NCBI GenBank assembly: GCA_965206745.1
Contig: OZ242220.1
Coordinates: 1,440,001-1,504,000 of the forward strand
Direction: 5' to 3'
From: Nitrosopumilus sp.
Lineage (GTDB): Archaea; Thermoproteota; Nitrososphaeria; Nitrososphaerales; Nitrosopumilaceae
Length of the DNA: 64,000 bases
The translations under genes and the position numbers were made by a program. Position 1 is the first letter of the stretch. Every line of letters starts with the position of its first letter. The notes under the pieces are model-generated. The model saw only the letters and a program-made list of their open reading frames with translations, was not told where the DNA came from and did no database searches. Of the stretch, positions 40,392-63,999 are shown piece by piece.

Positions 40392-40559
40392 ATGGCAAAA
40401 CTCAAGTGCAGTGATTACGGGTTTGAGTGTGATTTTATTGTCGAAGGCGAGAGGGATTCAGTCATTGACGACTTTAGAACCCACACTGAAGAGGTGCACG
40501 GAATAGACTATTCCAAGGAAGCAGTCATGCAGTTTCTCCTAAGAAAGCAGGGACTGTAA
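40392..40559 (+). CDS. DUF1059-family small metal-binding protein
   Basis: MAKLKCSDYGFECDF...H...VHG; start moved to 40392. Confidence 0.75.
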   Translation: MAKLKCSDYGFECDFIVEGERDSVIDDFRTHTEEVHGIDYSKEAVMQFLLRKQGL

Positions 40560-40573
40560 CGAAATTACACCTC

Positions 40574-41641: not shown

Positions 41642-41654
41642 ACCACTCCACCTG

Positions 41655-42338
41655 CTATGCCTTAATCCTGTCCCGTCCGCCTTTGGCGGTTCTAAAAACA
41701 TTCATTCCAAGATAGAAATTCTCATGCAGTGACTCTAGGTAAGTAATCTGGTTCTCAGTATCTGTGATCTCCTTTTGTGTCGCATCAGGATCATCTTGTA
41801 GTTGTGCAAGTTTCCCTTTGAGTTCCTCCAGAAAGGAGTCGACGCCGCGCTCATAGTTTGAAACGCCGGCAAACTCAGGGCTGAGAACGTGCTGTGGGGT
41901 ATATGCAGGGGTTTGATCCTGCGGGATTTCAGCCATTCTTGTCAGCGACTCTTGCTCGTCAGCAGAGAGGATAGGTCGTGGAAAACGGTCTGCCTTGTCC
42001 AGCCAAAATTCTGGTTCGCCCATATCGCGTCTAAAGATCTCCTCGCCCTGTCTCTTAAAAGTATAATCTGATTTTTTTGCCGATTCTGCCTTTACCTCTG
42101 CAGCAATTGCCTTGTACTCTTCTTCTGCTGCCTCCTCTGCTTGCGCCTTGGCTTTGGCTGCATTGGCCAGTGCCTTTTTGACTGCATTTTCTGCAGCTTC
42201 TGCTGCCTTGGTGGCAGCCTCCGCTTTGGCTATTGCAGATTCTGCTGAATTGGCCTCAAGTTTTGCAGCTTGGTTAGTAGCATCTTCGGATGGAGCCTCA
42301 GCAGGCTCTGCCTCTGATTCCTTTTTCTCTTCGGACAA
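41655..42338 (-). CDS. Hypothetical protein with Ala/Glu/Lys-rich coiled-coil N-terminus
   Basis: 227-aa ORF immediately upstream of the HemA-like gene. Confidence 0.75.
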   Translation of the reverse strand: MSEEKKESEAEPAEAPSEDATNQAAKLEANSAESAIAKAEAATKAAEAAENAVKKALANAAKAKAQAEEAAEEEYKAIAAEVKAESAKKSDYTFKRQGEEIFRRDMGEPEFWLDKADRFPRPILSADEQESLTRMAEIPQDQTPAYTPQHVLSPEFAGVSNYERGVDSFLEELKGKLAQLQDDPDATQKEITDTENQITYLESLHENFYLGMNVFRTAKGGRDRIKA

Positions 42339-42660
42339 TGAAATTTACTGAAATTGCCTGAATTTTAATATTCTTGTGGCAGTGGTTACTTGAAGAATGT
42401 TTTCTGATGGCAGTTTTTTGGGCGTGTCTCTGATCGGCAGAAAGGATCATGGGTTCCTCAAAAGGGAACATTCTCCCTTTCATTGACAAGGCCTTCCAAT
42501 GGGTGGTTTAGGGTATCAGGGGGAATCTTTTGGTGCATCCGCAGTACGTACTTTTTGGGTCGGTGCGATTTGAGGTGGGCCTCTCTGGATTACAGTCAGA
42601 TGATACCATGCTAGAACGGATCCCAAAGATTACAGGGTTGGCCAGTCAGCAAGACAAGGA

Positions 42661-45600
42661 CTAGTTTAACAGGTCTAATATTCTCTGCGCCTTGCCCTGC
42701 TCAATGTCGAGCTCCTCTGCGAGTTTTTCTGACTTTGAGACGCTGGACTTTGGATTTGAATAGTCATAGCTGAATGTCTGGTCAGGTATGGATACCAGCT
42801 TGCTTGCGTCAAATATCATAGTTGCCCTGTCTTGCTCCTGCTGCATCAGATTCTCAAAGTTTGAGTGCATCCTAGTCATCACGTTGACTGCACCGTCTGT
42901 GAATCGCTCCATCTCAGGTGAGGTAACTGAGAACCAGCTGCCGTGATCATTTTGTGTCCAGAGGTATCCCGAATCATCCTCCCAGATGTTGTAGCGCCTG
43001 TCCTGCTGGGTCAGGGTGATGATCTTTGCCGGTCCCTGGTTTGTCTTTTTCTGCACGATATACTGTGTCTTTGATTCAAGCAGAGAGTCGCCTGCAAACT
43101 CTACGCCCTCGTTGATGTACGTTACGGTGCTGCGTCGCTTGGAATCTACTGCAGATATTGCAAGCACGTCTGATTTCAGTGGCGCGTTAATCTTGAAGGA
43201 TATCTCAAAGGAGTGGCATATCGTACTAGAGCCGGGATTGCATGCGCCGCTGGTGACTGTGGCAGTTGTCTTGTTCTCGTCTACTAGCGACTCTTTTTGC
43301 TCGTGAATAATCTCATCTATATCATAGCCGACTGGACTGGTATAGTTCCTGTTTAGCATCAGTATGATGTCAGTTTCTGCATCTGTTGCCGCACCAATCT
43401 CGGGCACTCCAAGGGATAGTACCACATACCTGAATCCGTCAGCTGCATATGCCTTCATGGTGACGTTGTTTGTATCGCCGATTATTGACGATGTCCTTCT
43501 AAAGTCAGTGTGCCAGTTGTCAGTGACATCTAGTGTGCGGCCATTGAATGTGAATCCGTCCCTGACTAGCTGCGATGGGAGCACCTCCCATGACTTGCCA
43601 AAGGTTGGCTTTTTCTGCCAGTCATTTGAGCCGCCGTTTGTGGTTCTACGCAGTGTCAGCTCACCGTCTTGCGCAGACAATTCCCCGGTACCATCCTCAA
43701 ATGACCAGGTAAACTCGAACAATCTTGAGCTCTGACCAGATTCTAGATAACTAGAGTTAAACTGTGCAGAGAATCCACCTGTCTGATTATTTAGGGAAGA
43801 TGCGATGGATTCGGGCAAGCTACCCATATCTTTAATCCTGTATATTGACGTGTCATCTGGTGGACTCTCAGTCGGGTTTATGACTGCCCTACTCAGGTCT
43901 GGAATGTGTTGGTTGGGTCTTATTATATGTGAATACTGCCTAAATTCAGGTACTATGTTTACCTCGTTTACGATAATTTCGATATTTAGCGTAGCATCCT
44001 GATTGAGTGGCTCTGTATCAGTGAGGGTGATTGTGAATCCGACTGTGGTGTTGCCGTGAGTATCATCAGGTGTCCATGTGAATATTCCACTGGTTCTACC
44101 TATCTCTGCATTAGTATCAGTTGGGAATATTATGGCCCAGTCACCATCAACATCATTTGGAGTCAGATCATCATCGCTCAGGGTAAATGTCAGCATATCG
44201 TGTTCATCAACTGTTAGGCCTGGATCAGGAATGCCTCCGATCATGGGATCATGCCCGACGTTTATGATAGGGCCAATTATTAAAAAGTGTATTTCCATAG
44301 TGACTGGAGTAGAAATTATACCATCAGTCACTTGGACTATCCTTGTTATCGATGTACCGTCATGGACGTCACGAGGTGTGAATGTAAATACGCCGGTATC
44401 TCTATCAATGCTTCCCTGATCATTATTGCCATCCTCTAGACTCCATACCAGAGGCTCATCACCATCAGGATGCATAGCGGTGAAGGGTATTATTAGGGGC
44501 ACATCCACAGCGAGCCCTACAGGGAAATCTACAGGGAGACCTACAAAGAGATCTGGTGTGTTTATTACCGGTGGCAGGTTGTCGTTGGTTACCTCTATGG
44601 AACTAGTCTGCATTATGTTAGCATTTGGACCGTTGCCGTCGTCATTGTATGTCCACCTGAACTCGAACCGTTCTGGTGAGAGTGCGTTAGTTGTCGCATT
44701 ATGGGATACGGTTCCTTCAAATGTTCCATCATCAGGGTTTATCCTTATTCCAAGTGGCAGTTCGCCAGATTCGTGGGTATATGTTATGTCAGATGACGGA
44801 TTCTCCACATCATCTGTAATTGTAATTGAGAGCGAGCCAGGTACTGGGTTTCCCTCGACTACTTGCACATTGTATAGTGTGCCAGATAGGGTTGGTTCCT
44901 GGTTTGAAGTGTCTGCATTTACAGTAATTGCGTGAGGTACGCTTGCTCGTTGATTATCAACGTCAGTCAGAGTGAATGTAAACTCGACTGTAGTATCGAC
45001 AAACTGTGAACCGGGAGTCCATGAGAATAGTATGTTTTGTCCGGTGGTTGCATTAAGTGTTGCGCCAGTAGTAGTGGTTGAATTATCTGATAGTCTCCAT
45101 ATTGGCAGAGGATCATTTCTGTCAAGATCATCGCCGGTCACGATAAATGATACGGGACTACCAACAATAATTTCTCTAGGAGCAGTACTTGAAATAGGAT
45201 CTACTGTAGGCGCTCGGTTATTGTTGTTTATTGTCAGTCTGGCATCATATTCTGCTCGTGCTGTTCCAGCATTATCCTCATAGCTCCAGACAAAGTTATA
45301 GATTACCTCGCCTTCTGCATGATTTACTGTATCAAATGGAAGCCTGCCGCCTGCAAATACACCTGACTGTTCATTTAGGGTCCCTGCAACAGGCAAGTCG
45401 CCAGATACGTACCTGAATTCACGTATAATGCCAGGTGGCATTCCGTCAGGATATGTAATTACACTAGACAGGGAAGGAATGATCTGATTCTCTGATCTAG
45501 TAAAGTTGTATGAACCGATTGTAGCAGGGGTTGGCGGTTCACTTGTTGCAGACACAGTAATTGTGTGCGGTTCAGTGCTAGACCCACCATGACCATCACT

Positions 45601-48600
45601 TAGCGTAAATGTAAATACAGTATCACCCATATGGTCTTCCGTAGGAGTCCATGTGAATTCTATGTTTCGTCCGGTGGTTGCATTAAGTGTTGCGCCAGTA
45701 GCGGTTGAAGAATCATCTGATAGGGACCATGTCAAAGGATCTCCATCAGGATCCGTACCGGTCAGAGGGAATGTAACTGAGCTGCCTGCATCAACTTGGG
45801 AAGGAGTATTAGGAATGCCTGCGATTACTGGATTCTGGTTTGAAGTGTCTGCATTTACAGTAATTGCGTGAGGTACGCTTGCTCGTTGATTATCAACGTC
45901 AGTCAGAGTGAATGTAAACTCGACTGTAGTATCGACAAACTGTGAACCGGGAGTCCATGAGAATAGTATGTTTTGTCCGGTGGTTGCATTAAGTGTTGCG
46001 CCAGTAGTAGTGGTTGAATTATCTGATAGTCTCCATATTGGCAGAGGATCATTTCTGTCAAGATCATCGCCGGTCACGATAAATGATACGGGACTACCAA
46101 CAATAATTTCTCTAGGAGCAGTACTTGAAATAGGATCTACTGTAGGCGCTCGGTTATTGTTGTTTATTGTCAGTCTGGCATCATATTCTGCTCGTGCTGT
46201 TCCAGCATTATCCTCATAGCTCCAGACAAAGTTATAGATTACCTCGCCTTCTGCATGATTTACTGTATCAAATGGAAGCCTGCCGCCTGCAAATACACCT
46301 GACTGTTCATTTAGGGTCCCTGCAACAGGCAAGTCGCCAGATACGTACCTGAATTCACGTATAATGCCAGGTGGCATTCCGTCAGGATATGTAATTACAC
46401 TAGACAGGGAAGGAATGATCTGATTCTCTGATCTAGTAAAGTTGTATGAACCGATTGTAGCAGGGGTTGGCGGTTCACTTGCTGCAGACACAATAATTGT
46501 GTGCGGTTCAGTGCTAGACCCACCATGACCATCACTTAGCGTAAATGTAAATTCGTTATCACCTATATGCGCTTCTGCAGGAGTCCATGAGAATTCTATG
46601 TTTGATCCGGTGGTTGCATTAAGTGTTGCACCCAGAGTGTTAGGCGATAGAACCCATGTCAAAGAATTCCTATCAGGATCCATACCGGTCACGACAAATG
46701 TGACTGGGTTGCCTACAACAGCTGTGGGATCGGCATCCGCTGGGATGGTTATTTCTGGGTCTCTGACAGGTATATCAAATGATATATCCCTAGTGACTGG
46801 AGTAGTAATTATACCATCAGTCAATTGGACTGTCCTCGTTACCATTTGACCTTCCTGGGAGCTAAGAGGTGTAAATTCATATTCGCCGGTAAGCCTATTA
46901 ATTACTGCGCCCTCATTATTGCCATCAAGTATACTCCATGCAAAGTTAGCAGCATCACCGGGATCAGGATCCATACCCTCAAAATCTATCGGTTCTATTG
47001 CTTCACCTACATTGGGCATATCATCGTAATCTAGTGGGTCATCTATTGTCGGGGATCGGTTGACGTCGGTTACAGTTATGGTACCAGACTGCACCCCTGC
47101 TGATCCAATGCCGTCTGCAAATATCCAATTAAAGTTAAAGGTTACAGAACCTTGTGCAGCGGTTACATCATCAAATGGAATGGTGCCATCAAATTCGCCG
47201 GTGTCAGAATCCAAAAGATTTATGATGCCCTGAGGCAGGTTGCCGCCTGTGACTTCATACCCGGAGATAGTTTGTGCCGGAGTCAGAACAGAATCTATAA
47301 CTTCACTATACAAAGAGGGAAGAGTGTCACCTTCTGCTACTATCTCATCATAGGTATTAAATGAAGGCAGTTCCTCGACTGTCAGGGTGTAGGTACCTGA
47401 ATCAGGACCTGCAGTAGTGCTTGTTGCAGTGTAGTCTATTGCAAAGTCCTGTGATGTCGAACCGTCATTTATGGCATCAAGGTCTAGATTTCCAGTTATG
47501 GTACATGCGGCATTAAGTGTGAGACTGCCAGGCAGTAGGGAGTCAGGGGCACAGGTTATTTCGCCATCACCTGTAACTCCAAGTGGGATGTCTACTGTCT
47601 CACCTTCTGTGCGAGTTGAGGTACCGTTCGGTGCAGTAATTGTTGAAACGTCATCTACCAGTATGGTGCCAGGCTGGGATCCAGATGTAGATTCACCAAC
47701 ACTGTATGTCCATTCAAATGGGAATGGTCGTGGTGAGTTTCCGGCAGTTGTAGCATCATGGGGTACGGTTCCTGCAAATGTTCCATCATCACGGTTTAGC
47801 GTTATGCCAGATGGCAGTGCTTCAGTAAGTACGATGTCATATGTTATGCCAGGTACCGACTCTACACCAACTATTACACTTGCAAGCGAGGTGGGTATTT
47901 GCTGTCCCTCATCGACATCAACAGTGTATGGGCCAGATGTGTCAGGCAGTTCACTTGCTGCTGCAGACACAATAATTGTGTGCGGTTCAGTGCTAGATCC
48001 ACCACGACCATCACTTAGCGTAAATGTAAATTCGTTAGGACCTATATGCGCTTCTGCAGGAGTCCATGTGAATTCTATGCTTGATCCGGTGGTTGCATTA
48101 AGTACTGCACCGGTGGCAGTTGAAGAATCATCTGATAGGGACCATGTCAAAGTATTGCCATCAGGATCCTCACCGGTCACTACAAATGTGACTGGGTCGC
48201 CTACAACAGCTGTGGTATCGGCATCCGGTGGGATGGTTATGATTGGGTCTCTGACAGGTATAGTAAATTCTATTATCCTAGTGGCTGGAGTAGTAATTAT
48301 ACCATCAGTCACTTGGACTGTCCTATCTGCAAATCCACCTTCATGGAAATGAGGAGGCGTATATGTAAAGAATCCGGTTCTCGCATCAATTTCTGCACCC
48401 TGATCATTGCCGCGTTCTAGACTCCATACCAGTTCCTCATCACCATCAAGATGCGTAGCGGTGAACTGTATTTCTACGAGGTCACCTACATTGGGTGTAG
48501 GATCGAAAGTGTCTGGGGTATTTATTGTCGGTGCCAGGTTGACGTTGATTACCTCTATGGAACTAGTCTGAGTTATGTTAGCATTTGGACCGTTGCCGTC

Positions 48601-51600
48601 GTCATTGTATGTCCACCTGAACTCGAACCGTTCTGGTGAGAGTGCGTTAGTTGTCGCATTATGGGATACGGTTCCTTCAAATGTTCCATCATCAGGGTTT
48701 AGCCTTATTCCAAGTGGCAGTTCGCCAGATTCGTGGGTATATCTTATTATGGGGAATAGCGTATCGTCGGGATCATTAATTGCACCTGAGAGGGAACGTA
48801 GTACTGAGTCTCCCTCGCGGACTTGCTCACTGTACGGTGTGTCAGATAGGGACGGTGGTGCGTTTGTCTCTGCCACATCAAATGCGATGGTATAGGTGGC
48901 TACCTTCTCTCCGGGATCAGTCAGGGTGATTATAAAGTGGACTGTGCTGCTGCCGTGGGATTCACCTGGTGTCCACGTGAATATGCCATCTTGATCAATC
49001 ACTGCATTGTTGGTTGCATTTGCCTGTACAGTCCACTCCGGCTCATCATCACCTGTATCAGTGTCAGGATCCATGCCCTCAAAGTCAACTGATACCAATT
49101 CTCCCTCATCAGGTGTATCATCAACAGCACCTGAAGGACCGTCTATCACAGGTGCTCTGTTATAGTTGGTTACAGTGATTGTGCCAGCCCGGACAGGTTC
49201 TGGTGTATTGACGCCGTCATCATATGTCCATTGGATGGTGTAGACTCTGGTAGGGTCTGCATAGGTTGCAGTGTCAAATGGGAATGATGCATCAAATGCG
49301 CCAGTTGTCTCATCAAAGGAGCCGCTGACGACAGCAGGTAGTGGAGGGTCGCTTGATTCTAACGTGTATACGATGGTGCCAGATGACGATTCCACAGGGT
49401 CACTTACCGCACTTGAGAGTGGCGGAATTCTGCCGCCTTCAGATACTCCGGCATTATATTCAGATAGGTCTGGTATCTCGTCTATTGTTGGTGTGAGTTC
49501 CGTCTCAGATACGGTAAATTCAATCTCTTCAGTGGCTCTTGCGCCTATAGGATCAGTGAGGGTGATGTTAAATGAGACAGTGTCTCCATCGCCATACTGA
49601 CCGCCTGGAATCCACAAAAAGTCACCGGTGGCAGGATTGATAATTGCGCCGTCATTGTTTGGAGATATGCCCCATATTGGTGCAGCCTCGCCTGTAGTGT
49701 CATCAGTATCAGGATCCATACCCTCAAAGTCATATGATACTGCTTGGAATTGGGCAGGTGTATTGTTGATACCGTTCGGAGGTGTGATTACAGGCTCTCG
49801 GTTGTCGTTGTTTACTGTCAGTATGGCAAACATTTGAGGCGGTGATGGGTTGGTGTCATCTGTATACGTCCATGTAATGTTATAGTTTACAAAGCCTGGA
49901 TCAGAGTCTGCAGTGTCAAATGGGAACGTGTCTGAAAAGTCACCGGTTGCACTATCAATGGTGATACCAGGCAGTGGAGGGTCACTTGATACAAATGTAT
50001 AACTGATGGTACCGTCTGGAGAATCTTCGGCAGGGTCGCTGACTACGATGGAGAGTGACGGTACATCCTGTCCTTCAAGGATTGACTGTGAGTATTGGAC
50101 AATTCGGGGCGGATCACTTTCTGGCGTGTTTGGAGTGTCAGTTATGACAAATGGGACAGTCCTTGTGACCTGCTCATCTGCAGCATCAGTTAAGGTGAAT
50201 ATAACATCTACTGTGCCGGCGTGGGACTCGCCTGGAATCCACAGGAATGTGCCGTTTTCTGGATGAATCGTTGCATCGACAGTAGCATCAGCAGAGGATA
50301 CGCTCCACCTTGGCAGAGGATCGTTTGTGTCCTCATCAGAGCCGCTGGCAATAAATGATATTATTTCAAACTCAGAGTATGTCCTGGGGCCCGGAATCAG
50401 GTCAATTGTAGGTGCTCGGTTCTCGTTCTCTACAGTCAGGATGCCGTGCTGTACAGGAGAGGTTACAGAGTTGTATGTAAGGGTCCACTCAAACTCGTAG
50501 GTTGCAGGATCCTCCAAGGCAGATACCGTATCGTATGGAATGACATTTCTAAATGCGCCGGTGTTAGTATTCAGGAGATCTTTGAGGGATTCAGGCAGGG
50601 TGCCTTCTCCGATGTCGTAGACTAGTGTGGCGCCTGGTGGAATTGTATCGGGGTCAACTGCATCAGACAGTGAAGGAATCACGCTATTCTCTGCTACTCT
50701 TTCTGTGTAGGAGGTAAATGTCGGTTCGACACTTTGAGGCGGCTCGGTTCTCTCCTGCACGTCAACTGTGATGATTCGGTCATCCTTGTCCCCTGCAGGA
50801 TCAGTGAGGGTGAGCTTGAATGAGGCCGTGGTACTGGCATGAGTGTCATCAGGGGTCCACGTGAATAGACCGCTTGTCCTGCCAATCTCTGCACCGTCAT
50901 CATTTGGAGATATGCTCCATGTTGGGGCAGCCTCGCCTGTAGCAGAATCAGTATCGGGATCATCGCCTGTCATGGTAAATTGCAGGGTATCTCCAGGACT
51001 AGGTGAGACAAACGAGGGTGTTGCACCTATCACGGGCTCTCGGTTGTCGTTGTTTACTCGCAACGAGCCGAATTGTTCCTCTGGTACTGCACCACTGCCG
51101 TCTGTATACATCCATGTTATCTCATATCGTATAAAGCCAGGATCAGAGTCTGTGGTGTTAAATGGGAATGATCCGTCAAAGTCACCGGTGTTCTCATCAA
51201 AGTCGACGTCATCAGGCAGGTCCGGGCTGATGTCTAACAATTCATAACGGATGGCACCGTCTGGCGGAACCTCTACGGGATCTCGGACCAGTTCTGAGAG
51301 ACTGGGAATTGGACTGCCTTCCAATACTCCCCTCACGTAACGGAATATGGCAGGTTCCTCATTTACGTCTGGCGTGTCATCAACATTAGTTATGGTAAAG
51401 TCAAGCGGTACATCGTCTTTGTCACCTACAGGATCAGTGAGGGTGACGTTAAATGAGACTGTGTCTCCCTCGTCATACTGGTCACCCACAATCCACGTGA
51501 ATGCCCCACTGGTGGAATTGATGTATGCACCGTCATCATTTGGAGATATGCTCCATGTTGGGGGATCATCACCTGTATCAGTATCTTCATCCATACCCTC

Positions 51601-57600: not shown

Positions 57601-60600
57601 TGCGCCTATAGGATCAGTGAGGGTGATGTTAAATGAGACAGTGTCTCCATCGCCATACTGACCGCCTGGAATCCACAAAAAGTCACCGGTGGCAGGATTG
57701 ATAATTGCGCCGTCATTGTTTGGAGATATGCCCCATATTGGTGCAGCCTCGCCTGTAGTGTCATCAGTATCAGGATCCATACCCTCAAAGTCATATGATA
57801 CTGCTTGGAATTGGGCAGGTGTATTGTTGATACCGTTCGGAGGTGTGATTACAGGCTCTCGGTTGTCGTTGTTTACTGTCAGTATGGCAAACATTTGAGG
57901 CGGTGATGGGTTGGTGTCATCTGTATACGTCCATGTAATGTTATAGTTTACAAAGCCTGGATCAGAGTCTGCAGTGTCAAATGGGAACGTGTCTGAAAAG
58001 TCACCGGTTGCACTATCAATGGTGATACCAGGCAGTGGAGGGTCACTTGATACAAATGTATAACTGATGGTACCGTCTGGAGAATCTTCGGCAGGGTCGC
58101 TGACTACGATGGAGAGTGACGGTACATCCTGTCCTTCAAGGATTGACTGTGAGTATTGGACAATTCGGGGCGGATCACTTTCTGGCGTGTTTGGAGTGTC
58201 AGTTATGACAAATGGGACAGTCCTTGTGACCTGCTCATCTGCAGCATCAGTTAAGGTGAATATAACATCTACTGTGCCGGCGTGGGACTCGCCTGGAATC
58301 CACAGGAATGTGCCGTTTTCTGGATGAATCGTTGCATCGACAGTAGCATCAGCAGAGGATACGCTCCACCTTGGCAGAGGATCGTTTGTGTCCTCATCAG
58401 AGCCGCTGGCAATAAATGATATTATTTCAAACTCAGAGTATGTCCTGGGGCCCGGAATCAGGTCAATTGTAGGTGCTCGGTTCTCGTTCTCTACAGTCAG
58501 GATGCCGTGCTGTACAGGAGAGGTTACAGAGTTGTATGTAAGGGTCCACTCAAACTCGTAGGTTGCAGGATCCTCCAAGGCAGATACCGTATCGTATGGA
58601 ATGACATTTCTAAATGCGCCGGTGTTAGTATTCAGGAGATCTTTGAGGGATTCAGGCAGGGTGCCTTCTCCGATGTCGTAGACTAGTGTGGCGCCTGGTG
58701 GAATTGTATCGGGGTCAACTGCATCAGACAGTGAAGGAATCACGCTATTCTCTGCTACTCTTTCTGTGTAGGAGGTAAATGTCGGTTCGACACTTTGAGG
58801 CGGCTCGGTTCTCTCCTGCACGTCAACTGTGATGATTCGGTCATCCTTGTCCCCTGCAGGATCAGTGAGGGTGAGCTTGAATGAGGCCGTGGTACTGGCA
58901 TGAGTGTCATCAGGGGTCCACGTGAATAGACCGCTTGTCCTGCCAATCTCTGCACCGTCATCATTTGGAGATATGCTCCATGTTGGGGCAGCCTCGCCTG
59001 TAGCAGAATCAGTATCGGGATCATCGCCTGTCATGGTAAATTGCAGGGTATCTCCAGGACTAGGTGAGACAAACGAGGGTGTTGCACCTATCACGGGCTC
59101 TCGGTTGTCGTTGTTTACTCGCAACGAGCCGAATTGTTCCTCTGGTACTGCACCACTGCCGTCTGTATACATCCATGTTATCTCATATCGTATAAAGCCA
59201 GGATCAGAGTCTGTGGTGTTAAATGGGAATGATCCGTCAAAGTCACCGGTGTTCTCATCAAAGTCGACGTCATCAGGCAGGTCCGGGCTGATGTCTAACA
59301 ATTCATAACGGATGGCACCGTCTGGCGGAACCTCTACGGGATCTCGGACCAGTTCTGAGAGACTGGGAATTGGACTGCCTTCCAATACTCCCCTCACGTA
59401 ACGGAATATGGCAGGTTCCTCATTTACGTCTGGCGTGTCATCAACATTAGTTATGGTAAAGTCAAGCGGTACATCGTCTTTGTCACCTACAGGATCAGTG
59501 AGGGTGACGTTAAATGAGACTGTGTCTCCCTCGTCATACTGGTCACCCACAATCCACGTGAATGCCCCACTGGTGGAATTGATGTATGCACCGTCATCAT
59601 TTGGAGATATGCTCCATGTTGGGGGATCATCACCTGTATCAGTATCTTCATCCATACCCTCAAAGTCAAATGATACTGTTTGGAGTTCTGTAGGGTTTTC
59701 GTTGAAGCCGGTTCGAGTTGTAATTACAGGTGCCCGGTTGTCGTTGTTTACTGTCAGTATGGCAAACTGTTCATCTGATGTACCAGTGCCGTCTGTATAC
59801 GTCCATGTAATGTTATAGGTTACAAAGCCCGGATCAGAGTTTACAGTGTCAAATGGGAACGTGGCTGAAAAGTCACCGGTTGCCCCAATGGCGACAGGCA
59901 GTGGAGGGTCACTTGATACAAATGTATAACTGATGGCACCGACTGTCCCATCCTCGGCAGGGTCGCTGACTGCGATGGAGAGTGACGGGACATCCTGTCC
60001 TTCAAGTACAGTCTGTGAGTATGAGACAATTCGGGGCGGATCGTCACCTGACGTGTTTGGAGTGTCAATTATGTTAAATATGACAGTCTCTGTGTCCAGC
60101 TCACCTGCAGCATCAGTCAAGTTAAATGTAAACAGGATTGTGCTGCCGCCGCGAGACTCATCTGGAATCCACAGGAATGCCCCATTCTCCAGATGAATCT
60201 CTGCATCAGTGGAGACGGTGGCATTGTCCGATACACTCCACCTTGGCAGAGGATCGTTTGTGTCCTCATCAAAGCCTCGCACGGTAAATGATATTATTTC
60301 AAACTCAGAGTATGTCCTGGGGCCCGGAATCGGATCAACTGTTGGCAGTCTGTTGTTGTTCTCTACAGTTATGGTACTGTACTGCATCGGCGATGTTCCG
60401 GTGCCGTCCTCAAATGTCCACTCAATCTCGTAGGTTACAGAACCCTCCAGGGCAGATACCGTATCAAATGGGAACGTGGCTGAAAAGTCACCGGTTGCCG
60501 TATCAAAGGATCCTCTGATGTCATCAGGCAGGTTGTGTGATGTGATATTATATGTGGATACAAGGTCTGCCTCTGCTTCCTCAGGGTTGGTGACTGCATC

Positions 60601-63600
60601 AGATAGTGAAGGGATTGGCGCATCCTCCTGTATCCTTTCTGTATAGGAGGCAAATGTCGGCACATTGTTTGGATCTACTGTAAACGTGTGGATTGCAGTG
60701 GCAGGGATACCTTCCTCATCAGTTATGCTGAATGTGAATTCGACTCCAGTACCGCCATGCACATCACGTGGAGTCCACGAGAATACACCACTCTGAGAAA
60801 TTGTTGCATCTGTATTGGCATCAGAGTCATTAGAGGATACGCTCCATGTTGGCGGGTCGTCATTGGTGTCATCATCCCCGCCTAGCAGGGCAACTGGTAC
60901 ATTTTGACCGACAAAAATCAGTTCAGGTGTACCATCTGGAACCTGGATGGTTGGGAGCTGGTTGAGGTTCGTTACGTTTAGTGTACCAGGCTGATTCGGT
61001 GATGTTGTTCCAGAGCCGTCAGTGAAGGTCCACGCAAACGTAAAGAATTGGAATTCTTGCTCAAATGATACGGTATCAAATGGAATGACAGGACTAAACG
61101 CGCCAGTGTTTTCATTCAGAGTAACTGCAACCATACTCAGATTGCCAATTCCATCTACGATGGCATATCTGGGAGGGGTCTCTGAGGATTCATCAAGGTT
61201 GTTGACGAAATCAGAGAGGGGAGGAACGGCATCACCTTCTGGCACTGTCTCGGCATACATATCAAATGGGGATGTCACAGCATTGACTGTCAGGGTGTAG
61301 GTACCTGAAGCAGTATCTACAGTGTTTGTTGCATCGTATTCTATTGTAAATTGCCGCGATAATTCTCCGTCAGGTACGACATTATCACTTATAGTACCAG
61401 TTATGGCACAGTTCATCTCATCAAATATGAGATCGTCAGGCAGGTTCCTGGGGTCGGTGATGGTACAGGTTACGCCGCCTGGGGTTATGATTGTGCCGTC
61501 TGGGGTTGTGATTGTGCCGTCTGGGGTTATGATTGTGCCGCCTGGGGTTATGATTGTGCCGTCTGGGGTTATGATTGTGCCGTCTGGGATTGTGATTGTG
61601 CCGAATTGGGTTGTGATTGTGCCGAATTGGGTTGTGATTGTGCCGTCTGGGGTGACGGATACGCCGCCTAGGGTTATGATTGTGCCCTCTGTGGTTATGA
61701 TTGTGCCGCCTGGGGTTATTCTTATGCCGTCTGGGGTTATGATTGTGCCGTCTGGGATTGTGATTGTGCCGGCTAGGGTTATTCTTGTGCCGTCTGGGGT
61801 TGTGATTGTGCCGTCTGGGGTTATGATTGTGCCGTCTGGGGTTCTGATTGTGCTGCCTGGGGTTGTGATTGTGCCGCCTGGGGTTATGATTGTGCCGCCT
61901 GGGGTTGTGATTGTGCCGTCTGGGGTTGTGATTGTGCCGTCTGGGGTTGTGATTGTGCCGTCTGGGGTTGTGATTGTGCCGTCTGGGCCCGTAGCTCCAA
62001 GTGGGATGTCTACTGTCTCACCTTCTCTGTGAGTTGAGGAGCCGTCAGGTGCAACAACTATTTGAACGTCAGTTACCGTTATGGTACCGGTCTGGGAAAT
62101 AGATTCGACATCATCAGTGTATCTCCACATGAACTCGAAAGGTTCTGGCGAGTCTCCGGCAGTTGTGGCATCATGTGATACGGTTCCTTCAAATGTTCCA
62201 TCAGGGTTCAGCGTTATTCCGTCTGGCAGTGGTTGGCCAAGTACGCGGGCATATGTTATCTCAGATGGCGGATCGTCGGGATCATCAACTACATCTGCAA
62301 GGGAGGTGGGTATTGAGTCTCCCTCGTTGACATCAACGGTATATGGAGTGGCAGGTATGGGCGCCTGCGTGTTTGTCTCTGCGACCTCAAATAGGACGGT
62401 CCTAGTGTCCAGGTCTCCGGGAGGATCAGTGTAGGTGATTGTGAATGCGACTGTACTGCCGCCGTGGGATTCATCGGGTGTCCACGTGAATATTCCGTTG
62501 ACTGGGTTGATTGTCGCATCGGTGGTGGCATTGGCCTGTACTGCCCATACGGGATCTGCATCGGTGACGTCGTCATCCGTACCGTTAAAGTTAATCCTCA
62601 TTGCTTGGTGCTCTAAAGGTGTCGTGTCAATGACATCCAAATAGTCATCAGATATCATTGGACGCTGGTTGTAGTTGGTTACTGTGATTGTACCATCCTG
62701 AGTTAGAGATTCGCCTCTAGTACTGCCATCCTCATATGTCCATTGGATGTCATAGGTTCGGGTAGGCTCCCGATGGCTTGCAGTGGTAAATGGGAACGGA
62801 TCATCAAATGCGCCAGTTGTCTGGTCAAAGGAGCCTCTGACGTCATCAGGCAGGTTGCTTGATACGATTCTATATACAATGTCATCATCCGTAGAAGTCT
62901 CTGCAGGGTCACTTATTGCACTTGAGAGGGACGGAATCCTTTGGCCTTCTGGTATTCCGACATTGTAATCAAACGTATCATATTCGTCGTTTGTTGGTGT
63001 GAGTGCCGTCTCAGATACGACAAAGTCAATCTTTTCAGTGTCCCTTGCGCCTGCAGGATCAGTGAGGGTGACGTTAAATGAGACAGCTCCAATGTGCTCC
63101 TGGCCTGGAATCCACAGGAATTCACCGGTGGCAGGATCAATAATTGCGCCGTCATCATTTGGAGATATGCCCCATATTGGTGCAGCCTCGCCTGTAGTGT
63201 CATCAGTATCTTCATCCATACCCTCAAAGGTAAATTCTACTGCTTGGAATTGGGCAGGTGTATCGGCGATACCGTTCGGAGTTGTGATTACAGGTGCTCG
63301 GTTGAAGTTGTTTACTGTAATTGTGTCAGTCTGCTCATATGGTGATTCATCACTGCCGTCTGTATACGTCCATGTAATGTCATATTGTACAAAGCCAGGA
63401 TCAGAGCCTGTGGTGTTGAATGGGAACGTGGCTGAAAAGTCACCGGTTGCTGGAACAAAGGATTCTGCAATGTCTTCAGGCAGGGTGGTGCCGCTTGGTA
63501 CCAATGCATAACTGATGGCACCAACTACCGAATCCTCGGCAGGATCACTGACTGTGATGGAGAGTGACGGGACATCCTGTCCTTCAAGGATTGACTGTGA

Positions 63601-63999
63601 GTATGCGACAATTTGTGGCCGATCGTCTCCTGGCGTGGGTTCAGTATCAGTTATGGTAAATATGATAGGCTCTGTGGTGGCCGGTGCACCTGCAGCATCA
63701 GTTAAGGTGAATGTGAAATCTACCTCGGTGCCGCCGTACCCAGCACTGGGAATCCACAGGAATGTGCCATTTTCTGGATGAATCGTCGCATCCGCATTGG
63801 CAGTAGCATCACTAGATGATACGCTCCACCTTGGCAGAGGATCGTTTGTGTCCTCATCAGAGCCGCTTGCGACAAATGATATTATTTCAAACTCAGAGTA
63901 TGTCCTGGGACCCGGAATCAGATCAATTGTAGGTGCCCGGTTGTCGTTGTCTACAGTTAACGTACTGTACTGTATATCAGATACTCCGGTGCCGTCCTG
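42661..63999 (-). CDS. Giant acidic cadherin/Ig-like repeat surface protein, at least 7112 aa, 5' end outside the window
   Basis: I read the frame upstream of the ORF-track start (63504) to 63999 and found no stop (QDGTGVSDIQYSTLTV...); recurring roughly 100-aa domains with N.NR.P, D.D..D and G.F.W.P motifs. Confidence 0.92.
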   Translation of the reverse strand, partial: QDGTGVSDIQYSTLTVDNDNRAPTIDLIPGPRTYSEFEIISFVASGSDEDTNDPLPRWSVSSSDATANADATIHPENGTFLWIPSAGYGGTEVDFTFTLTDAAGAPATTEPIIFTITDTEPTPGDDRPQIVAYSQSILEGQDVPSLSITVSDPAEDSVVGAISYALVPSGTTLPEDIAESFVPATGDFSATFPFNTTGSDPGFVQYDITWTYTDGSDESPYEQTDTITVNNFNRAPVITTPNGIADTPAQFQAVEFTFEGMDEDTDDTTGEAAPIWGISPNDDGAIIDPATGEFLWIPGQEHIGAVSFNVTLTDPAGARDTEKIDFVVSETALTPTNDEYDTFDYNVGIPEGQRIPSLSSAISDPAETSTDDDIVYRIVSSNLPDDVRGSFDQTTGAFDDPFPFTTASHREPTRTYDIQWTYEDGSTRGESLTQDGTITVTNYNQRPMISDDYLDVIDTTPLEHQAMRINFNGTDDDVTDADPVWAVQANATTDATINPVNGIFTWTPDESHGGSTVAFTITYTDPPGDLDTRTVLFEVAETNTQAPIPATPYTVDVNEGDSIPTSLADVVDDPDDPPSEITYARVLGQPLPDGITLNPDGTFEGTVSHDATTAGDSPEPFEFMWRYTDDVESISQTGTITVTDVQIVVAPDGSSTHREGETVDIPLGATGPDGTITTPDGTITTPDGTITTPDGTITTPGGTIITPGGTITTPGSTIRTPDGTIITPDGTITTPDGTRITLAGTITIPDGTIITPDGIRITPGGTIITTEGTIITLGGVSVTPDGTITTQFGTITTQFGTITIPDGTIITPDGTIITPGGTIITPDGTITTPDGTIITPGGVTCTITDPRNLPDDLIFDEMNCAITGTISDNVVPDGELSRQFTIEYDATNTVDTASGTYTLTVNAVTSPFDMYAETVPEGDAVPPLSDFVNNLDESSETPPRYAIVDGIGNLSMVAVTLNENTGAFSPVIPFDTVSFEQEFQFFTFAWTFTDGSGTTSPNQPGTLNVTNLNQLPTIQVPDGTPELIFVGQNVPVALLGGDDDTNDDPPTWSVSSNDSDANTDATISQSGVFSWTPRDVHGGTGVEFTFSITDEEGIPATAIHTFTVDPNNVPTFASYTERIQEDAPIPSLSDAVTNPEEAEADLVSTYNITSHNLPDDIRGSFDTATGDFSATFPFDTVSALEGSVTYEIEWTFEDGTGTSPMQYSTITVENNNRLPTVDPIPGPRTYSEFEIISFTVRGFDEDTNDPLPRWSVSDNATVSTDAEIHLENGAFLWIPDESRGGSTILFTFNLTDAAGELDTETVIFNIIDTPNTSGDDPPRIVSYSQTVLEGQDVPSLSIAVSDPAEDGTVGAISYTFVSSDPPLPVAIGATGDFSATFPFDTVNSDPGFVTYNITWTYTDGTGTSDEQFAILTVNNDNRAPVITTRTGFNENPTELQTVSFDFEGMDEDTDTGDDPPTWSISPNDDGAYINSTSGAFTWIVGDQYDEGDTVSFNVTLTDPVGDKDDVPLDFTITNVDDTPDVNEEPAIFRYVRGVLEGSPIPSLSELVRDPVEVPPDGAIRYELLDISPDLPDDVDFDENTGDFDGSFPFNTTDSDPGFIRYEITWMYTDGSGAVPEEQFGSLRVNNDNREPVIGATPSFVSPSPGDTLQFTMTGDDPDTDSATGEAAPTWSISPNDDGAEIGRTSGLFTWTPDDTHASTTASFKLTLTDPAGDKDDRIITVDVQERTEPPQSVEPTFTSYTERVAENSVIPSLSDAVDPDTIPPGATLVYDIGEGTLPESLKDLLNTNTGAFRNVIPYDTVSALEDPATYEFEWTLTYNSVTSPVQHGILTVENENRAPTIDLIPGPRTYSEFEIISFIASGSDEDTNDPLPRWSVSSADATVDATIHPENGTFLWIPGESHAGTVDVIFTLTDAADEQVTRTVPFVITDTPNTPESDPPRIVQYSQSILEGQDVPSLSIVVSDPAEDSPDGTISYTFVSSDPPLPGITIDSATGDFSDTFPFDTADSDPGFVNYNITWTYTDDTNPSPPQMFAILTVNNDNREPVITPPNGINNTPAQFQAVSYDFEGMDPDTDDTTGEAAPIWGISPNNDGAIINPATGDFLWIPGGQYGDGDTVSFNITLTDPIGARATEEIEFTVSETELTPTIDEIPDLSEYNAGVSEGGRIPPLSSAVSDPVESSSGTIVYTLESSDPPLPAVVSGSFDETTGAFDASFPFDTATYADPTRVYTIQWTYDDGVNTPEPVRAGTITVTNYNRAPVIDGTSGIDRNPSEGQTVFFTLFGSDPDTRTATVAGDDPPEWTVQANATNNAVIDRINGAFTWPTDHTHGGSTVEFTFVLTDPGKKVVTRIITFDVAEIIGLPGTVTNGYAASVNEGQTIDFPLSDAVDDPGDPTSPITYTHESGELPLGIDLNPDGSFVGTVSHDATTAEDSPEPFTFMWRYSDGPTESLIQTSTIHVTDVPTVPESVVPTFTSYTERVAENSVIPSLSDAVDPDTIPPGATLVYDIGEGTLPESLKDLLNTNTGAFRNVIPYDTVSALEDPATYEFEWTLTYNSVTSPVQHGILTVENENRAPTIDLIPGPRTYSEFEIISFIASGSDEDTNDPLPRWSVSSADATVDATIHPENGTFLWIPGESHAGTVDVIFTLTDAADEQVTRTVPFVITDTPNTPESDPPRIVQYSQSILEGQDVPSLSIVVSDPAEDSPDGTISYTFVSSDPPLPGITIDSATGDFSDTFPFDTADSDPGFVNYNITWTYTDDTNPSPPQMFAILTVNNDNREPVITPPNGINNTPAQFQAVSYDFEGMDPDTDDTTGEAAPIWGISPNNDGAIINPATGDFLWIPGGQYGDGDTVSFNITLTDPIGARATEEIEFTVSETELTPTIDEIPDLSEYNAGVSEGGRIPPLSSAVSDPVEDSTTGTPVYTLESSDPPLPAVVSGSFDETTGAFDASFPFDTATYADPTRVYTIQWTYDDGVNTPEPVRAGTITVTNYNRAPVIDGPSGAVDDTPDEGELVSVDFEGMDPDTDTGDDEPEWTVQANATNNAVIDQDGIFTWTPGESHGSSTVHFIITLTDPGEKVATYTIAFDVAETNAPPSLSDTPYSEQVREGDSVLRSLSGAINDPDDTLFPIIRYTHESGELPLGIRLNPDDGTFEGTVSHNATTNALSPERFEFRWTYNDDGNGPNANITQTSSIEVINVNLAPTINTPDTFDPTPNVGDLVEIQFTATHLDGDEELVWSLERGNDQGAEIDARTGFFTYTPPHFHEGGFADRTVQVTDGIITTPATRIIEFTIPVRDPIITIPPDADTTAVVGDPVTFVVTGEDPDGNTLTWSLSDDSSTATGAVLNATTGSSIEFTWTPAEAHIGPNEFTFTLSDGRGGSSTEPHTIIVSAAASELPDTSGPYTVDVDEGQQIPTSLASVIVGVESVPGITYDIVLTEALPSGITLNRDDGTFAGTVPHDATTAGNSPRPFPFEWTYSVGESTSGSQPGTILVDDVSTITAPNGTSTRTEGETVDIPLGATGPGGVTCTITDPRNLPDDLIFDEMNCAITGTISDNVVPDGELSRQFTIEYDATNTVDTASGTYTLTVNAVTSPFDMYAETVPEGDAVPPLSDFVNNLDESSETPPRYAIVDGIGNLSMVAVTLNENTGAFSPVIPFDTVSFEQEFQFFTFAWTFTDGSGTTSPNQPGTLNVTNLNQLPTIQVPDGTPELIFVGQNVPVALLGGDDDTNDDPPTWSVSSNDSDANTDATISQSGVFSWTPRDVHGGTGVEFTFSITDEEGIPATAIHTFTVDPNNVPTFASYTERIQEDAPIPSLSDAVTNPEEAEADLVSTYNITSHNLPDDIRGSFDTATGDFSATFPFDTVSALEGSVTYEIEWTFEDGTGTSPMQYSTITVENNNRLPTVDPIPGPRTYSEFEIISFTVRGFDEDTNDPLPRWSVSDNATVSTDAEIHLENGAFLWIPDESRGGSTILFTFNLTDAAGELDTETVIFNIIDTPNTSGDDPPRIVSYSQTVLEGQDVPSLSIAVSDPAEDGTVGAISYTFVSSDPPLPVAIGATGDFSATFPFDTVNSDPGFVTYNITWTYTDGTGTSDEQFAILTVNNDNRAPVITTRTGFNENPTELQTVSFDFEGMDEDTDTGDDPPTWSISPNDDGAYINSTSGAFTWIVGDQYDEGDTVSFNVTLTDPVGDKDDVPLDFTITNVDDTPDVNEEPAIFRYVRGVLEGSPIPSLSELVRDPVEVPPDGAIRYELLDISPDLPDDVDFDENTGDFDGSFPFNTTDSDPGFIRYEITWMYTDGSGAVPEEQFGSLRVNNDNREPVIGATPSFVSPSPGDTLQFTMTGDDPDTDSATGEAAPTWSISPNDDGAEIGRTSGLFTWTPDDTHASTTASFKLTLTDPAGDKDDRIITVDVQERTEPPQSVEPTFTSYTERVAENSVIPSLSDAVDPDTIPPGATLVYDIGEGTLPESLKDLLNTNTGAFRNVIPYDTVSALEDPATYEFEWTLTYNSVTSPVQHGILTVENENRAPTIDLIPGPRTYSEFEIISFIASGSDEDTNDPLPRWSVSSADATVDATIHPENGTFLWIPGESHAGTVDVIFTLTDAADEQVTRTVPFVITDTPNTPESDPPRIVQYSQSILEGQDVPSLSIVVSDPAEDSPDGTISYTFVSSDPPLPGITIDSATGDFSDTFPFDTADSDPGFVNYNITWTYTDDTNPSPPQMFAILTVNNDNREPVITPPNGINNTPAQFQAVSYDFEGMDPDTDDTTGEAAPIWGISPNNDGAIINPATGDFLWIPGGQYGDGDTVSFNITLTDPIGARATEEIEFTVSETELTPTIDEIPDLSEYNAGVSEGGRIPPLSSAVSDPVESSSGTIVYTLESSDPPLPAVVSGSFDETTGAFDASFPFDTATYADPTRVYTIQWTYDDGVNTPEPVRAGTITVTNYNRAPVIDGPSGAVDDTPDEGELVSVDFEGMDPDTDTGDDEPEWTVQANATNNAVIDQDGIFTWTPGESHGSSTVHFIITLTDPGEKVATYTIAFDVAETNAPPSLSDTPYSEQVREGDSVLRSLSGAINDPDDTLFPIIRYTHESGELPLGIRLNPDDGTFEGTVSHNATTNALSPERFEFRWTYNDDGNGPNANITQTSSIEVINVNLAPTINTPDTFDPTPNVGDLVEIQFTATHLDGDEELVWSLERGNDQGAEIDARTGFFTYTPPHFHEGGFADRTVQVTDGIITTPATRIIEFTIPVRDPIITIPPDADTTAVVGDPVTFVVTGEDPDGNTLTWSLSDDSSTATGAVLNATTGSSIEFTWTPAEAHIGPNEFTFTLSDGRGGSSTEPHTIIVSAAASELPDTSGPYTVDVDEGQQIPTSLASVIVGVESVPGITYDIVLTEALPSGITLNRDDGTFAGTVPHDATTAGNSPRPFPFEWTYSVGESTSGSQPGTILVDDVSTITAPNGTSTRTEGETVDIPLGVTGDGEITCAPDSLLPGSLTLNAACTITGNLDLDAINDGSTSQDFAIDYTATSTTAGPDSGTYTLTVEELPSFNTYDEIVAEGDTLPSLYSEVIDSVLTPAQTISGYEVTGGNLPQGIINLLDSDTGEFDGTIPFDDVTAAQGSVTFNFNWIFADGIGSAGVQSGTITVTDVNRSPTIDDPLDYDDMPNVGEAIEPIDFEGMDPDPGDAANFAWSILDGNNEGAVINRLTGEYEFTPLSSQEGQMVTRTVQLTDGIITTPVTRDISFDIPVRDPEITIPADADPTAVVGNPVTFVVTGMDPDRNSLTWVLSPNTLGATLNATTGSNIEFSWTPAEAHIGDNEFTFTLSDGHGGSSTEPHTIIVSAASEPPTPATIGSYNFTRSENQIIPSLSSVITYPDGMPPGIIREFRYVSGDLPVAGTLNEQSGVFAGGRLPFDTVNHAEGEVIYNFVWSYEDNAGTARAEYDARLTINNNNRAPTVDPISSTAPREIIVGSPVSFIVTGDDLDRNDPLPIWRLSDNSTTTTGATLNATTGQNILFSWTPGSQFVDTTVEFTFTLTDVDNQRASVPHAITVNADTSNQNPVIAGIPNTPSQVDAGSSVTFPLTGTDPDGDPLTWSLSDDSSTATGATLNATTGRNIEFTWTPTEDHMGDTVFTFTLSDGHGGSSTEPHTITVSATSEPPTPATIGSYNFTRSENQIIPSLSSVITYPDGMPPGIIREFRYVSGDLPVAGTLNEQSGVFAGGRLPFDTVNHAEGEVIYNFVWSYEDNAGTARAEYDARLTINNNNRAPTVDPISSTAPREIIVGSPVSFIVTGDDLDRNDPLPIWRLSDNSTTTTGATLNATTGQNILFSWTPGSQFVDTTVEFTFTLTDVDNQRASVPHAITVNADTSNQEPTLSGTLYNVQVVEGNPVPGSLSITITDDVENPSSDITYTHESGELPLGIRINPDDGTFEGTVSHNATTNALSPERFEFRWTYNDDGNGPNANIMQTSSIEVTNDNLPPVINTPDLFVGLPVDFPVGLAVDVPLIIPFTAMHPDGDEPLVWSLEDGNNDQGSIDRDTGVFTFTPRDVHDGTSITRIVQVTDGIISTPVTMEIHFLIIGPIINVGHDPMIGGIPDPGLTVDEHDMLTFTLSDDDLTPNDVDGDWAIIFPTDTNAEIGRTSGIFTWTPDDTHGNTTVGFTITLTDTEPLNQDATLNIEIIVNEVNIVPEFRQYSHIIRPNQHIPDLSRAVINPTESPPDDTSIYRIKDMGSLPESIASSLNNQTGGFSAQFNSSYLESGQSSRLFEFTWSFEDGTGELSAQDGELTLRRTTNGGSNDWQKKPTFGKSWEVLPSQLVRDGFTFNGRTLDVTDNWHTDFRRTSSIIGDTNNVTMKAYAADGFRYVVLSLGVPEIGAATDAETDIILMLNRNYTSPVGYDIDEIIHEQKESLVDENKTTATVTSGACNPGSSTICHSFEISFKINAPLKSDVLAISAVDSKRRSTVTYINEGVEFAGDSLLESKTQYIVQKKTNQGPAKIITLTQQDRRYNIWEDDSGYLWTQNDHGSWFSVTSPEMERFTDGAVNVMTRMHSNFENLMQQEQDRATMIFDASKLVSIPDQTFSYDYSNPKSSVSKSEKLAEELDIEQGKAQRILDLLN
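44899..46629. repeat. Direct repeat with 936-bp period (about 44899-45693 and 45835-46629) in the giant gene
   Basis: Matching sequence at a constant 936 offset; shadow ORFs at 44972 and 45908 are identical. Confidence 0.92.
47577..56581. repeat. About 3.15-kb near-identical direct repeat (47577-50725 and 53430-56581; offset 5853/5856)
   Basis: Matching sequence at both ends; identical shadow ORFs 48451/54304 and 50006/55862; one 3-nt indel patch. Confidence 0.92.
49139..61482. repeat. About 4.28-kb near-identical direct repeat (49139-53421 and 57200-61482; offset 8061)
   Basis: Identical shadow ORFs at offset 8061 (49271/57332, 50843/58904, 52961/61022); ends checked by eye. Confidence 0.93.
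61481..61986. repeat. 21-bp coding minisatellite, about 24 units (GGGGTTRTGATTGTGCCGTCT), encoding (TPDGTI[T/I])n
   Basis: Tandem units directly visible, with scattered substitutions (TQFG, TPGG, TLAG variants). Confidence 0.95.

Follow-up and report, generated by a model that had tools for sequence, protein, structure and literature searches.

The stretch of DNA analysed here (the window) covers 64,000 nucleotides of a Nitrosopumilus sp. genome (GenBank assembly GCA_965206745.1), at positions 1440001-1504000 of contig OZ242220.1, called C1 below. Between window positions 42661 and 63999, the minus strand carries one open frame of 7,112 codons plus a stop, whose 5' end is open and leaves the window. 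This frame is the 3' 38% of a giant gene located on the minus strand at C1:1482661-1538847. Its product is a long array of immunoglobulin (Ig)-like and cadherin-like modules that ends in a C-terminal domain (CTD) found on many other proteins of the same archaeal family. A first-pass annotation of the window had described a giant cadherin/Ig-like surface protein in a 21.3-kb open frame running off its edge, and had proposed a calcium-stiffened rod, possibly an adhesin. The observation is confirmed by the current work and the interpretation is partly supported. The shared CTD, which was absent from that annotation, is the most informative part of the giant protein. The features of the gene in the window, all on the minus strand, are as follows.

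42661..63999, minus strand: 3' 21.3 kb of the giant gene (7,112 codons and the stop), from the reading of open frames; the gene continues to C1:1538847.
42664..43644, minus strand: CTD, amino acids (aa) 18402-18728, from profiles, a structure model and six genomic copies.
43645..47379, minus strand: C-proximal module array, aa 17157-18401, single-copy except for one internal two-copy duplication, from unitigs with 1 or 2 exact copies in the assembly.
47377..61482, minus strand: about 2.4 copies of a 5.85-kb super-repeat, 96.8-99.9% identical to copies outside the window, from self-megablast and unitig depth.
60043..60675, minus strand: the A-B tandem chosen for modelling (A, 60358-60660; B, 60061-60345), from module profiles and the structure model.
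53209..53502, minus strand: C-type module, a He_PIG domain with one Cys pair (32.7 bits, cut-off 24), from Pfam.
47368-47649 and inside 61270-62067, minus strand: further C-type modules, from the analysis of Cys pairs and gaps.
61474..61987, minus strand: in-frame tandem of 21 nt x 24.5 coding for a PDGTITT-like heptad, in a loop of one C-type module.
61483..63999, minus strand: older, diverged repeat region with 75-81% DNA identity to the super-repeat, from self-megablast.

The source genome consists of 1,861,144 bp in two contigs without any N, and has a completeness score of 99.6%. In this genome the frame of the giant gene extends over 18,731 codons from stop to stop and is free of stop codons. 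Three codons into it comes the first possible start, a TTG at C1:1538847 (window-equivalent position 98847), and a TATA-like TTATATATAA ends 19 nt upstream of this TTG. The gene thus measures 56,187 nt, or 3.0% of the genome, and its product would have 18,728 aa and a mass of 2.01 MDa. Strongly hydrophobic 19-mers (Kyte-Doolittle score above 1.9) were found only within residues 1-24. These residues are predicted to be a Sec-type signal peptide, with V-F-A before Q as a normal cleavage motif, and the same scan of 19-mers detected no hydrophobic segment at the C-terminus. The N-terminus and signal peptide that the first-pass annotation proposed to look for beyond the window were therefore both located.

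The composition of the whole protein (T 13.2%, D 10.6%, P 8.7%, K 0.46%) agrees with the Asp/Thr/Pro-rich, Lys-poor character seen earlier in its 3' part. Acidic residues prevail, with 3,162 Asp and Glu against 627 Lys and Arg. Lys is nearly excluded from the module array (0.37%) but reaches a normal 5.5% in the CTD; the low Lys content of the array might reflect protease evasion, nitrogen economy or charge. The G+C content of the gene is 47.8%, compared with 41.2% in the genome. Frequent N-x-T sequons had also been reported. N-x-T alone is above expectation (153 against 116.5 +/- 9.7, counts that are non-independent since the copies are repeated), whereas the total of N-x-S/T sequons in the whole protein, 177, is at the level given by 300 shuffles (186.5 +/- 11.4), and an overall enrichment of sequons was rejected. 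Of the 17 Cys residues, all but the one in the signal peptide form pairs within the same domain, a pattern that fits an extracellular protein.

Profiles built from the protein itself identified 85 modules of type A and 84 of type B, each about 100 aa long, of which 30 A and 31 B modules lie inside the window. The seven gaps left by the A and B profiles correspond to six two-cysteine modules of type C (about 98 aa) and one unique 99-aa stretch, giving about 176 modules in total. The alternation of two module types first noticed in the window extends over the whole protein, with 74 A-to-B and 75 B-to-A successions compared with 10 A-A and 9 B-B. One of the C-type modules contains the insert of 21 nt x 24.5 that codes for heptads; the other five have no such insert.

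Domain searches agree with the Ig/cadherin-like nature of the protein. In Pfam, He_PIG (PF05345; cut-off 24 bits) was matched by all five protein pieces scanned, at 49-199 bits, Big_9 (PF17963; cut-off 23.6 bits) by four of the five, at 49-179 bits, and Cadherin_5 (PF17892; cut-off 26.5 bits) by three, at 39-71 bits. The NCBIfam tandem-95 repeat NF012211 (cut-off 90 bits) reached 102.6, 131.1 and 142.4 bits in three pieces, and 44 and 66 bits in the other two. Single B and C modules matched He_PIG at 24.8-37.1 bits. When the 44 distinct A modules were compared with Pfam at E <= 0.01, He_PIG was detected in 10 (best 3.7e-7) and no family in the remaining 34. Modules B and C and a quarter of the distinct A modules are thus above the cut-offs of these models, and type A is classified, on its profile matches, as a divergent form of He_PIG. 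The RTX family HemolysinCabind had no Pfam match in the five pieces. The secreted-protein module WING-49 was not among their NCBIfam matches (E <= 1e-3), nor was it matched by the N-terminal 500 aa or the CTD (NCBIfam, E <= 1).

An AlphaFold model of the A-B tandem, computed from an alignment of 31 non-redundant copies in the gene, consists of two beta-sandwiches (predicted local distance difference test, pLDDT, 92.7; predicted TM-score, pTM, 0.81), the fold type anticipated in the first-pass annotation. In Foldseek searches, the best structural matches of this model were cadherin-type, with E values of 8e-9 to 5e-7. At the top were the cadherin-like modules of SraP, 4m00 (E 8e-9, query TM-score, TMq, 0.58), and the matches also included many pairs of extracellular cadherin (EC) domains of cadherins and protocadherins and the extender of an RTX adhesin, 6xi1 (TMq 0.52). 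The A profile found no significant relative among the sequences of the Protein Data Bank (PDB), the best being Cadherin-1 at E 0.73. The A and B profiles are marginally alike (hhalign probability 45%, E 2e-4). A single sequence family for both was considered, because a B-seeded profile came to cover all A modules; it was rejected as profile drift, since the clean profiles barely cross-match (B-only profile, 1 of 46 distinct A modules; A-only profile, 0 of 40 B modules). A and B thus share a predicted fold and have marginal similarity in sequence.

The junctions of the array differ according to their direction. Early in the A modules, Y-x3-x-x-E is present in 82 of 85 and its Glu is near-invariant. 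A linker V/I-x-N-x-N-[RQL]-x-P follows 72 of the 85 A modules, G-x-D-x-D is found in 75 of 84 B modules, and L-T-D is conserved late in the B modules. The B-to-A links, by contrast, are spacers of 10-15 residues made of Pro, Thr and acidic residues; the linker motif comes after just 2 of the 84 B modules. The classical cadherin linker has the consensus D-x-N-D-N. The Glu in A, the Asn-rich linker ending in Pro, and G-x-D-x-D with L-T-D in B resemble this arrangement, which suggests, as far as sequence motifs can, that the residues of the A-to-B junction are laid out like cadherin calcium sites. Unlike in cadherins, Asn takes the place of Asp in the linker and the motif occurs at every second junction only. 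Acidic and Asn residues at the A-to-B junction may bind calcium from seawater and stiffen the A-B pair. As the B-to-A links lack the linker motif, the rod would then consist of stiff A-B units strung together.

The size of the gene is the result of recent tandem duplication of a 5.85-kb block of 19 modules. Self-megablast revealed a super-repeat of this length, about 1,951 aa, with about 3.7 copies at gene nt 9826-31451 and about 2.4 copies at nt 37366-51471. Together these six copies occupy about 36 kb of the giant gene and are 96.8-99.9% identical. One stretch of 10,742 nt is duplicated with 11 mismatches. Older copies, 75-81% identical, lie between and before the super-repeat blocks. The ratio of non-synonymous to synonymous substitutions (dN/dS) is 0.52-0.65 between old repeats and 0.8-1.2 between young super-repeat copies. 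Indels between copies were also considered as a signal of selection and were set aside as uninformative, because at the DNA level they are compensating pairs in diverged patches.

Near-identical repeats are prone to misassembly, and therefore the depth of unitigs was compared with the assembled copy number. Public runs, as short Logan unitigs from four runs, were mapped on the window. In run X1, which is possibly the source sample, exact unitigs had a depth of 429-485 at 1 assembly copy, 826 at 2 copies and 2110-2198 at 5 copies. Depth per assembled copy is thus 413-485 for seven of the eight exact unitigs, a measure of copy number that cannot prove copy order. The eighth unitig, with a depth of 2033, has 3 exact copies, 1 partial copy and 1 copy at 98%. 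In run X3, from another study, the single-copy 3' part is present with 4-7 differences per 380-406 bases. Bins without cover in runs X2, X3 and X7 carry no meaning. Run X2 shows long loose ends at window positions 61554 and 61585, next to the heptad tandem, which may mean a different number of heptad repeats in another population.

The CTD comprises the last 327 aa of the giant protein. It contains two invariant Cys eight residues apart, and the motifs P-T-F-G and D-I-T-D-N-x-H-T. No family matched it in Pfam (DUF2436 and DUF7537 sub-threshold) or in NCBIfam (none at E <= 1). Its predicted structure (pLDDT 86.5) is a large beta-sandwich with a small beta domain and two helices. Six copies of the CTD exist in the source genome, each at the end of an open frame with a signal-like N-terminus. 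The five paralogues, whose frames have 1,257, 1,631, 2,978, 3,984 and 5,232 codons, carry Ig-type passengers and CTDs of 74-79% identity. All four of the largest frames of the genome end in the CTD. No partner gene is common to the six loci, the only similarity across loci being that of large open reading frames (ORFs) beside two of them.

Outside this genome, the CTD is widespread within one archaeal family. In a library of 1.84 billion proteins it has matches in 626 clusters at E <= 1e-3 and in 181 at E <= 1e-30. In 140 of the best 150 matches the domain is positioned at the expected C-terminus to within 30 residues; a hydrophobic 19-mer occurs in the last 60 residues of only 1 of these best 150 relatives. 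Among 200 other genomes sampled from the class, the CTD was detected in 46 of the 126 that belong to the same family and in none of the 74 that do not. The named records are proteins of Nitrosopumilus metagenome-assembled genomes (MAGs). The 51 confirmed loci in species genomes are all in MAGs of ammonia-oxidising Nitrososphaerota, some of which have more than 10 copies. Most of these loci are labelled Nitrosopumilus or Nitrosopumilaceae, and a few Nitrosotenuis, Nitrososphaeraceae or by phylum only, in keeping with the Nitrosopumilaceae member suggested by the first-pass annotation.

The passengers of the CTD are diverse. Among 38 relatives, Peptidase_S8 (3), periplasmic solute-binding domains (2), BNR propellers (3), LVIVD repeats (2), a NosD-like beta-helix (1) and an NHL/SGL propeller (1) were identified, along with many Ig or fn3 arrays. 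In other ammonia-oxidising archaea, P0062, P0065, P0051, P0056 and P0159 are fusions of the CTD to periplasmic solute-binding domains or S8 subtilases. Because it is terminal on many unrelated, apparently secreted proteins, including solute-binding proteins that need to stay bound to the cell, the CTD is most likely a module for retention or sorting at the cell envelope, a role read from its distribution.

Relatives of the module array are fewer. Four proteins of 1,508-1,846 aa in the protein database have the full A-B-A-B pattern with 35-46% identity. One of them, P0166, is a 1,520-aa paralogue from the source genome and has no CTD; the others are P0164, P0165 and P0167. In P0166 and P0164, the A-B array stands behind a Lys-rich N-terminal region, and P0164 likewise has no CTD. 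The presence of A-B arrays in proteins of 1,500-1,850 aa shows that the A module also occurs outside the giant gene.

Other genomes of the archaeal family also have giant frames. Those that match the CTD reach 6,655, 7,683, 8,617 and 9,068 codons. A genome of the same family (1.64 Mb, one contig) has a frame of 25,697 codons at about 1045958-1122913, larger than the giant gene, with a signal-like N-terminus, a partial CTD match, and Big_5 arrays in the two 5,000-residue pieces scanned. No A-B modules were found in these other giants.

On the 3' side of the giant gene, two ORFs on the minus strand, at window positions 40574-41701 and 41655-42338, overlap by 47 nt; they are the gene of glutamyl-tRNA reductase (GlutR) and an ORF of 227 aa of unknown function. 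On the upstream side, C1:1540121-1553178 contains four plus-strand ORFs without Pfam match (163, 237, 836 and 617 aa), then a T2SSE-type secretion/pilus ATPase (503 aa) and an ORF of 1,919 aa without Pfam match. Farther upstream are two frames, of 1,304 and 1,394 aa, as well as the CTD paralogue of 5,232 codons, so that about 100 kb are dense in very large genes. Two frames of 1,725 codons, at C1:1010070-1015244 and 1031099-1036273, are near the size of the Nitrosopumilus maritimus S-layer protein (1,734 aa) and its paralogue. The 1,919-aa neighbour and the 1,631-aa CTD paralogue were tried as relatives of S-layer proteins and rejected, as neither has a relative among PDB sequences. A chain like that of the S-layer protein NmSLP was not found among PDB sequences, in which the extent of the NmSLP residues was not confirmed, with the CTD profile, the A profile or an ABAB stretch. 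The second contig of the assembly, C2 (2,066 bp), has direct and inverted matches to itself (76-91%) and none on C1, and is unrelated to the giant gene.

Known giant proteins share part of this architecture. As passages of PMC4083281 describe, the giant repeat adhesin of Marinomonas primoryensis (MpAFP/MpIBP) has a mass of 1.5 MDa and about 120 tandem calcium-dependent Ig-like repeats of 104 residues. The giant protein resembles such bacterial adhesins of the type I secretion system (T1SS), including MpAFP and the Aeromonas RTX adhesin 6xi1, in its megadalton size, its beta-sandwich extenders of about 100 residues, many of them near-identical, and its acidic junction motifs of calcium type. 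It differs from them in that its signal is N-terminal and of Sec type, where they have a C-terminal T1SS signal, and in having no RTX match, two alternating module types, no recognised head, and a family-specific 327-aa domain at its end; its host, moreover, is an archaeon without an outer membrane. Set against RTX/T1SS adhesins, the neighbours that were scanned here are GlutR, unknown ORFs, the T2SSE-type ATPase and the 1,919-aa ORF. Part of the text of PMC12863079 reports that five genes of Apilactobacillus kunkeei, Giant1-5, coding for 3,000-8,000 aa, fill 6% of a 1.5-Mb genome. Here, too, several percent of a small genome (7.9%, counting frames of at least 1,500 codons) are devoted to apparently extracellular giants, although the host of Giant1-5 is a bacterium and their domain content is different. 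Among archaea, halomucin of Haloquadratum walsbyi, with 9,159 aa and a signal sequence, is called the largest known archaeal protein at the time of publication in excerpts of PMC4378361. Compared by description, both are giant archaeal proteins with export signals, but halomucin is mucin-like and not an Ig array, and the giant protein is twice as long.

The CTD has its own counterparts. S-layer homology (SLH) domains, the CTD of type IX secretion and the archaeal PGF-CTERM and PEF-CTERM tails are C-terminal modules that define families of surface proteins. Like them, the CTD is terminal, sits on unrelated passengers in one genome and is restricted to a lineage; unlike them, it lacks a hydrophobic tail, and at 327 aa it is far larger. 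An archaeosortase-type tail (PGF-CTERM/PEF-CTERM) was not recognised, as the giant protein has no C-terminal hydrophobic helix and the CTD no NCBIfam match.

These observations are probably best explained by a real gene of 56.2 kb that encodes an exported, acidic, cadherin-like extracellular fibre, held by its CTD, acting as a tether or adhesin, and grown by duplication of blocks. Cadherin-type modules are about 4.5 nm long, on which basis the extended fibre would measure about 0.8 micrometre. The CTD would hold the giant protein non-covalently at the cell envelope, since many unrelated secreted proteins of the archaeal family have this domain as their tail. The free end may reach out as a tether or adhesin towards a host matrix, particles or other cells.

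Several results weigh against this explanation. No ligand-binding head (lectin, vWA or similar) was recognised anywhere in the giant protein, so that adhesion is argued from the architecture. The linker, although Asn-rich, is one residue shorter than the cadherin consensus, and classical Cadherin (PF00028) had no match in Pfam scans of pieces, modules or distinct A copies. The model of the CTD had 0 matches at E <= 1e-3 in the PDB by Foldseek, where only generic two-Ig hits appeared, and a wide VIA-align search returned a flat list of generic V-type Ig folds (Z 7.3-8.2). The CTD profile had 0 matches among PDB sequences, and the best score in the ESM Atlas was 0.78, below the useful range. As the CTD has no informative structural relative, its anchoring role is deduced from context. 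In 81 genomes of the genus, full-length matches of the A-B profile were limited to the giant gene; 8 of the 80 other species matched with the B half only, and no orthologue was found in any of the 80. Nor was one found among proteins of 3.9-12.4 k aa, where the matches were distant repeat proteins (25-28% identical) and one CTD-only match. The dN/dS near 1 among young copies indicates that the newest copies are not yet under constraint at the protein level. To these must be added the copy order, which unitig depth leaves unproven, and the record of expression discussed below.

The most serious rival is a protein that is released, forming a loose extracellular matrix or coat in the manner of halomucin, with the CTD as a shared head, an aid in folding or export, or a unit of self-assembly. 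The giant protein has no membrane anchor at either end, its predicted signal peptide has a normal cleavage motif, the CTD shows no known anchor fold, and there is the precedent of halomucin, which passages of PMC4378361 present as a secreted archaeal protein of 9,159 aa seen around cells. On solute-binding proteins and S8 peptidases, however, a common CTD is sensible only if the passenger is kept at the cell, and six paralogues of very different lengths end in one common tail; release is accordingly considered unlikely. Less probable again is a polyanionic brush that is not an adhesin, which would concentrate cations such as ammonium and calcium or protect the cell against viruses and grazers. 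The excess of 3,162 Asp and Glu over 627 Lys and Arg, and the contrast in Lys between body (0.37%) and CTD (5.5%), would suit such a brush. Parts of PMC11153153 describe the S-layer of N. maritimus as highly negative, with Ig-like domains and with ammonium binding that depends on its integrity, a cation-enriching role that a brush would extend. An acidic, Lys-poor composition is, however, also usual in calcium-binding repeat adhesins, and the surface gained from one fibre is small beside that of the whole S-layer.

The two remaining rivals deny the gene itself or its function. An assembly artefact, with a wrong number or order of super-repeats and a true gene that is much shorter or broken, has to be considered because some 36 kb of highly identical repeats, including the 10,742-nt duplication with 11 mismatches, are hard to assemble, and because the Logan contigs of all four runs are only a few hundred bases long and contain numerous joints between copies. 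Yet depth in run X1 scales with copy number in seven of eight exact unitigs and near-copies explain the eighth, the assembly consists of 2 contigs with no N, and with just one young copy kept the open frame would still extend over about 27 kb (9,000 codons); this rival is given a very small chance. A decaying or silent relic, inflated by neutral duplication, seems hardly credible. It could account for the dN/dS near 1 between young copies and for the fact that no orthologue was found in 80 species of the genus, and among the runs listed for the 3' 5 kb none is on record as RNA, three being only guessed to be RNA. Against it stand 18,731 codons without a stop, the dN/dS of 0.52-0.65 in older repeats, and an intact signal peptide, intact Cys pairs and an intact CTD that is 74-79% identical to those of five intact paralogues. 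The tethered fibre remains the preferred explanation, and the gene would then be expected to be expressed.

Literature searches found neither these giant genes nor the CTD described. Bins from short reads would fragment such genes, which may explain this silence. Cadherin and Ig domains are mentioned in sponge-associated and free-living Thaumarchaeota in passages of PMC7848895 and PMC6697440, and a preprint (10.1101/2023.11.21.568195) states that archaeal proteins of more than 10,000 aa exist but are few.

A broader reading, offered tentatively and with less confidence than the tethered fibre itself, is that the CTD is a Nitrosopumilaceae-specific docking module for any exported protein, onto the S-layer or another part of the envelope, and that the giant gene encodes a tether of adjustable length, which would become longer or shorter as 5.85-kb units are gained or lost. 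If this is true, the CTD would fill the role that SLH domains, sortase signals or the type IX tail have in bacteria, with passengers that range from peptidases, solute-binding proteins and propellers to fibres of up to 25,000 residues.

Ammonia-oxidising archaea are usually portrayed as streamlined cells with small genomes. One gene that takes up 3% of a 1.86-Mb genome and would yield a fibre of about the length of the cell points to a lifestyle in which attachment or reach matters. The CTD is the more useful lead, because it marks a whole class of apparently exported proteins in this archaeal family. It is a testable candidate for the way in which cells with only an S-layer may retain secreted proteins at their surface.

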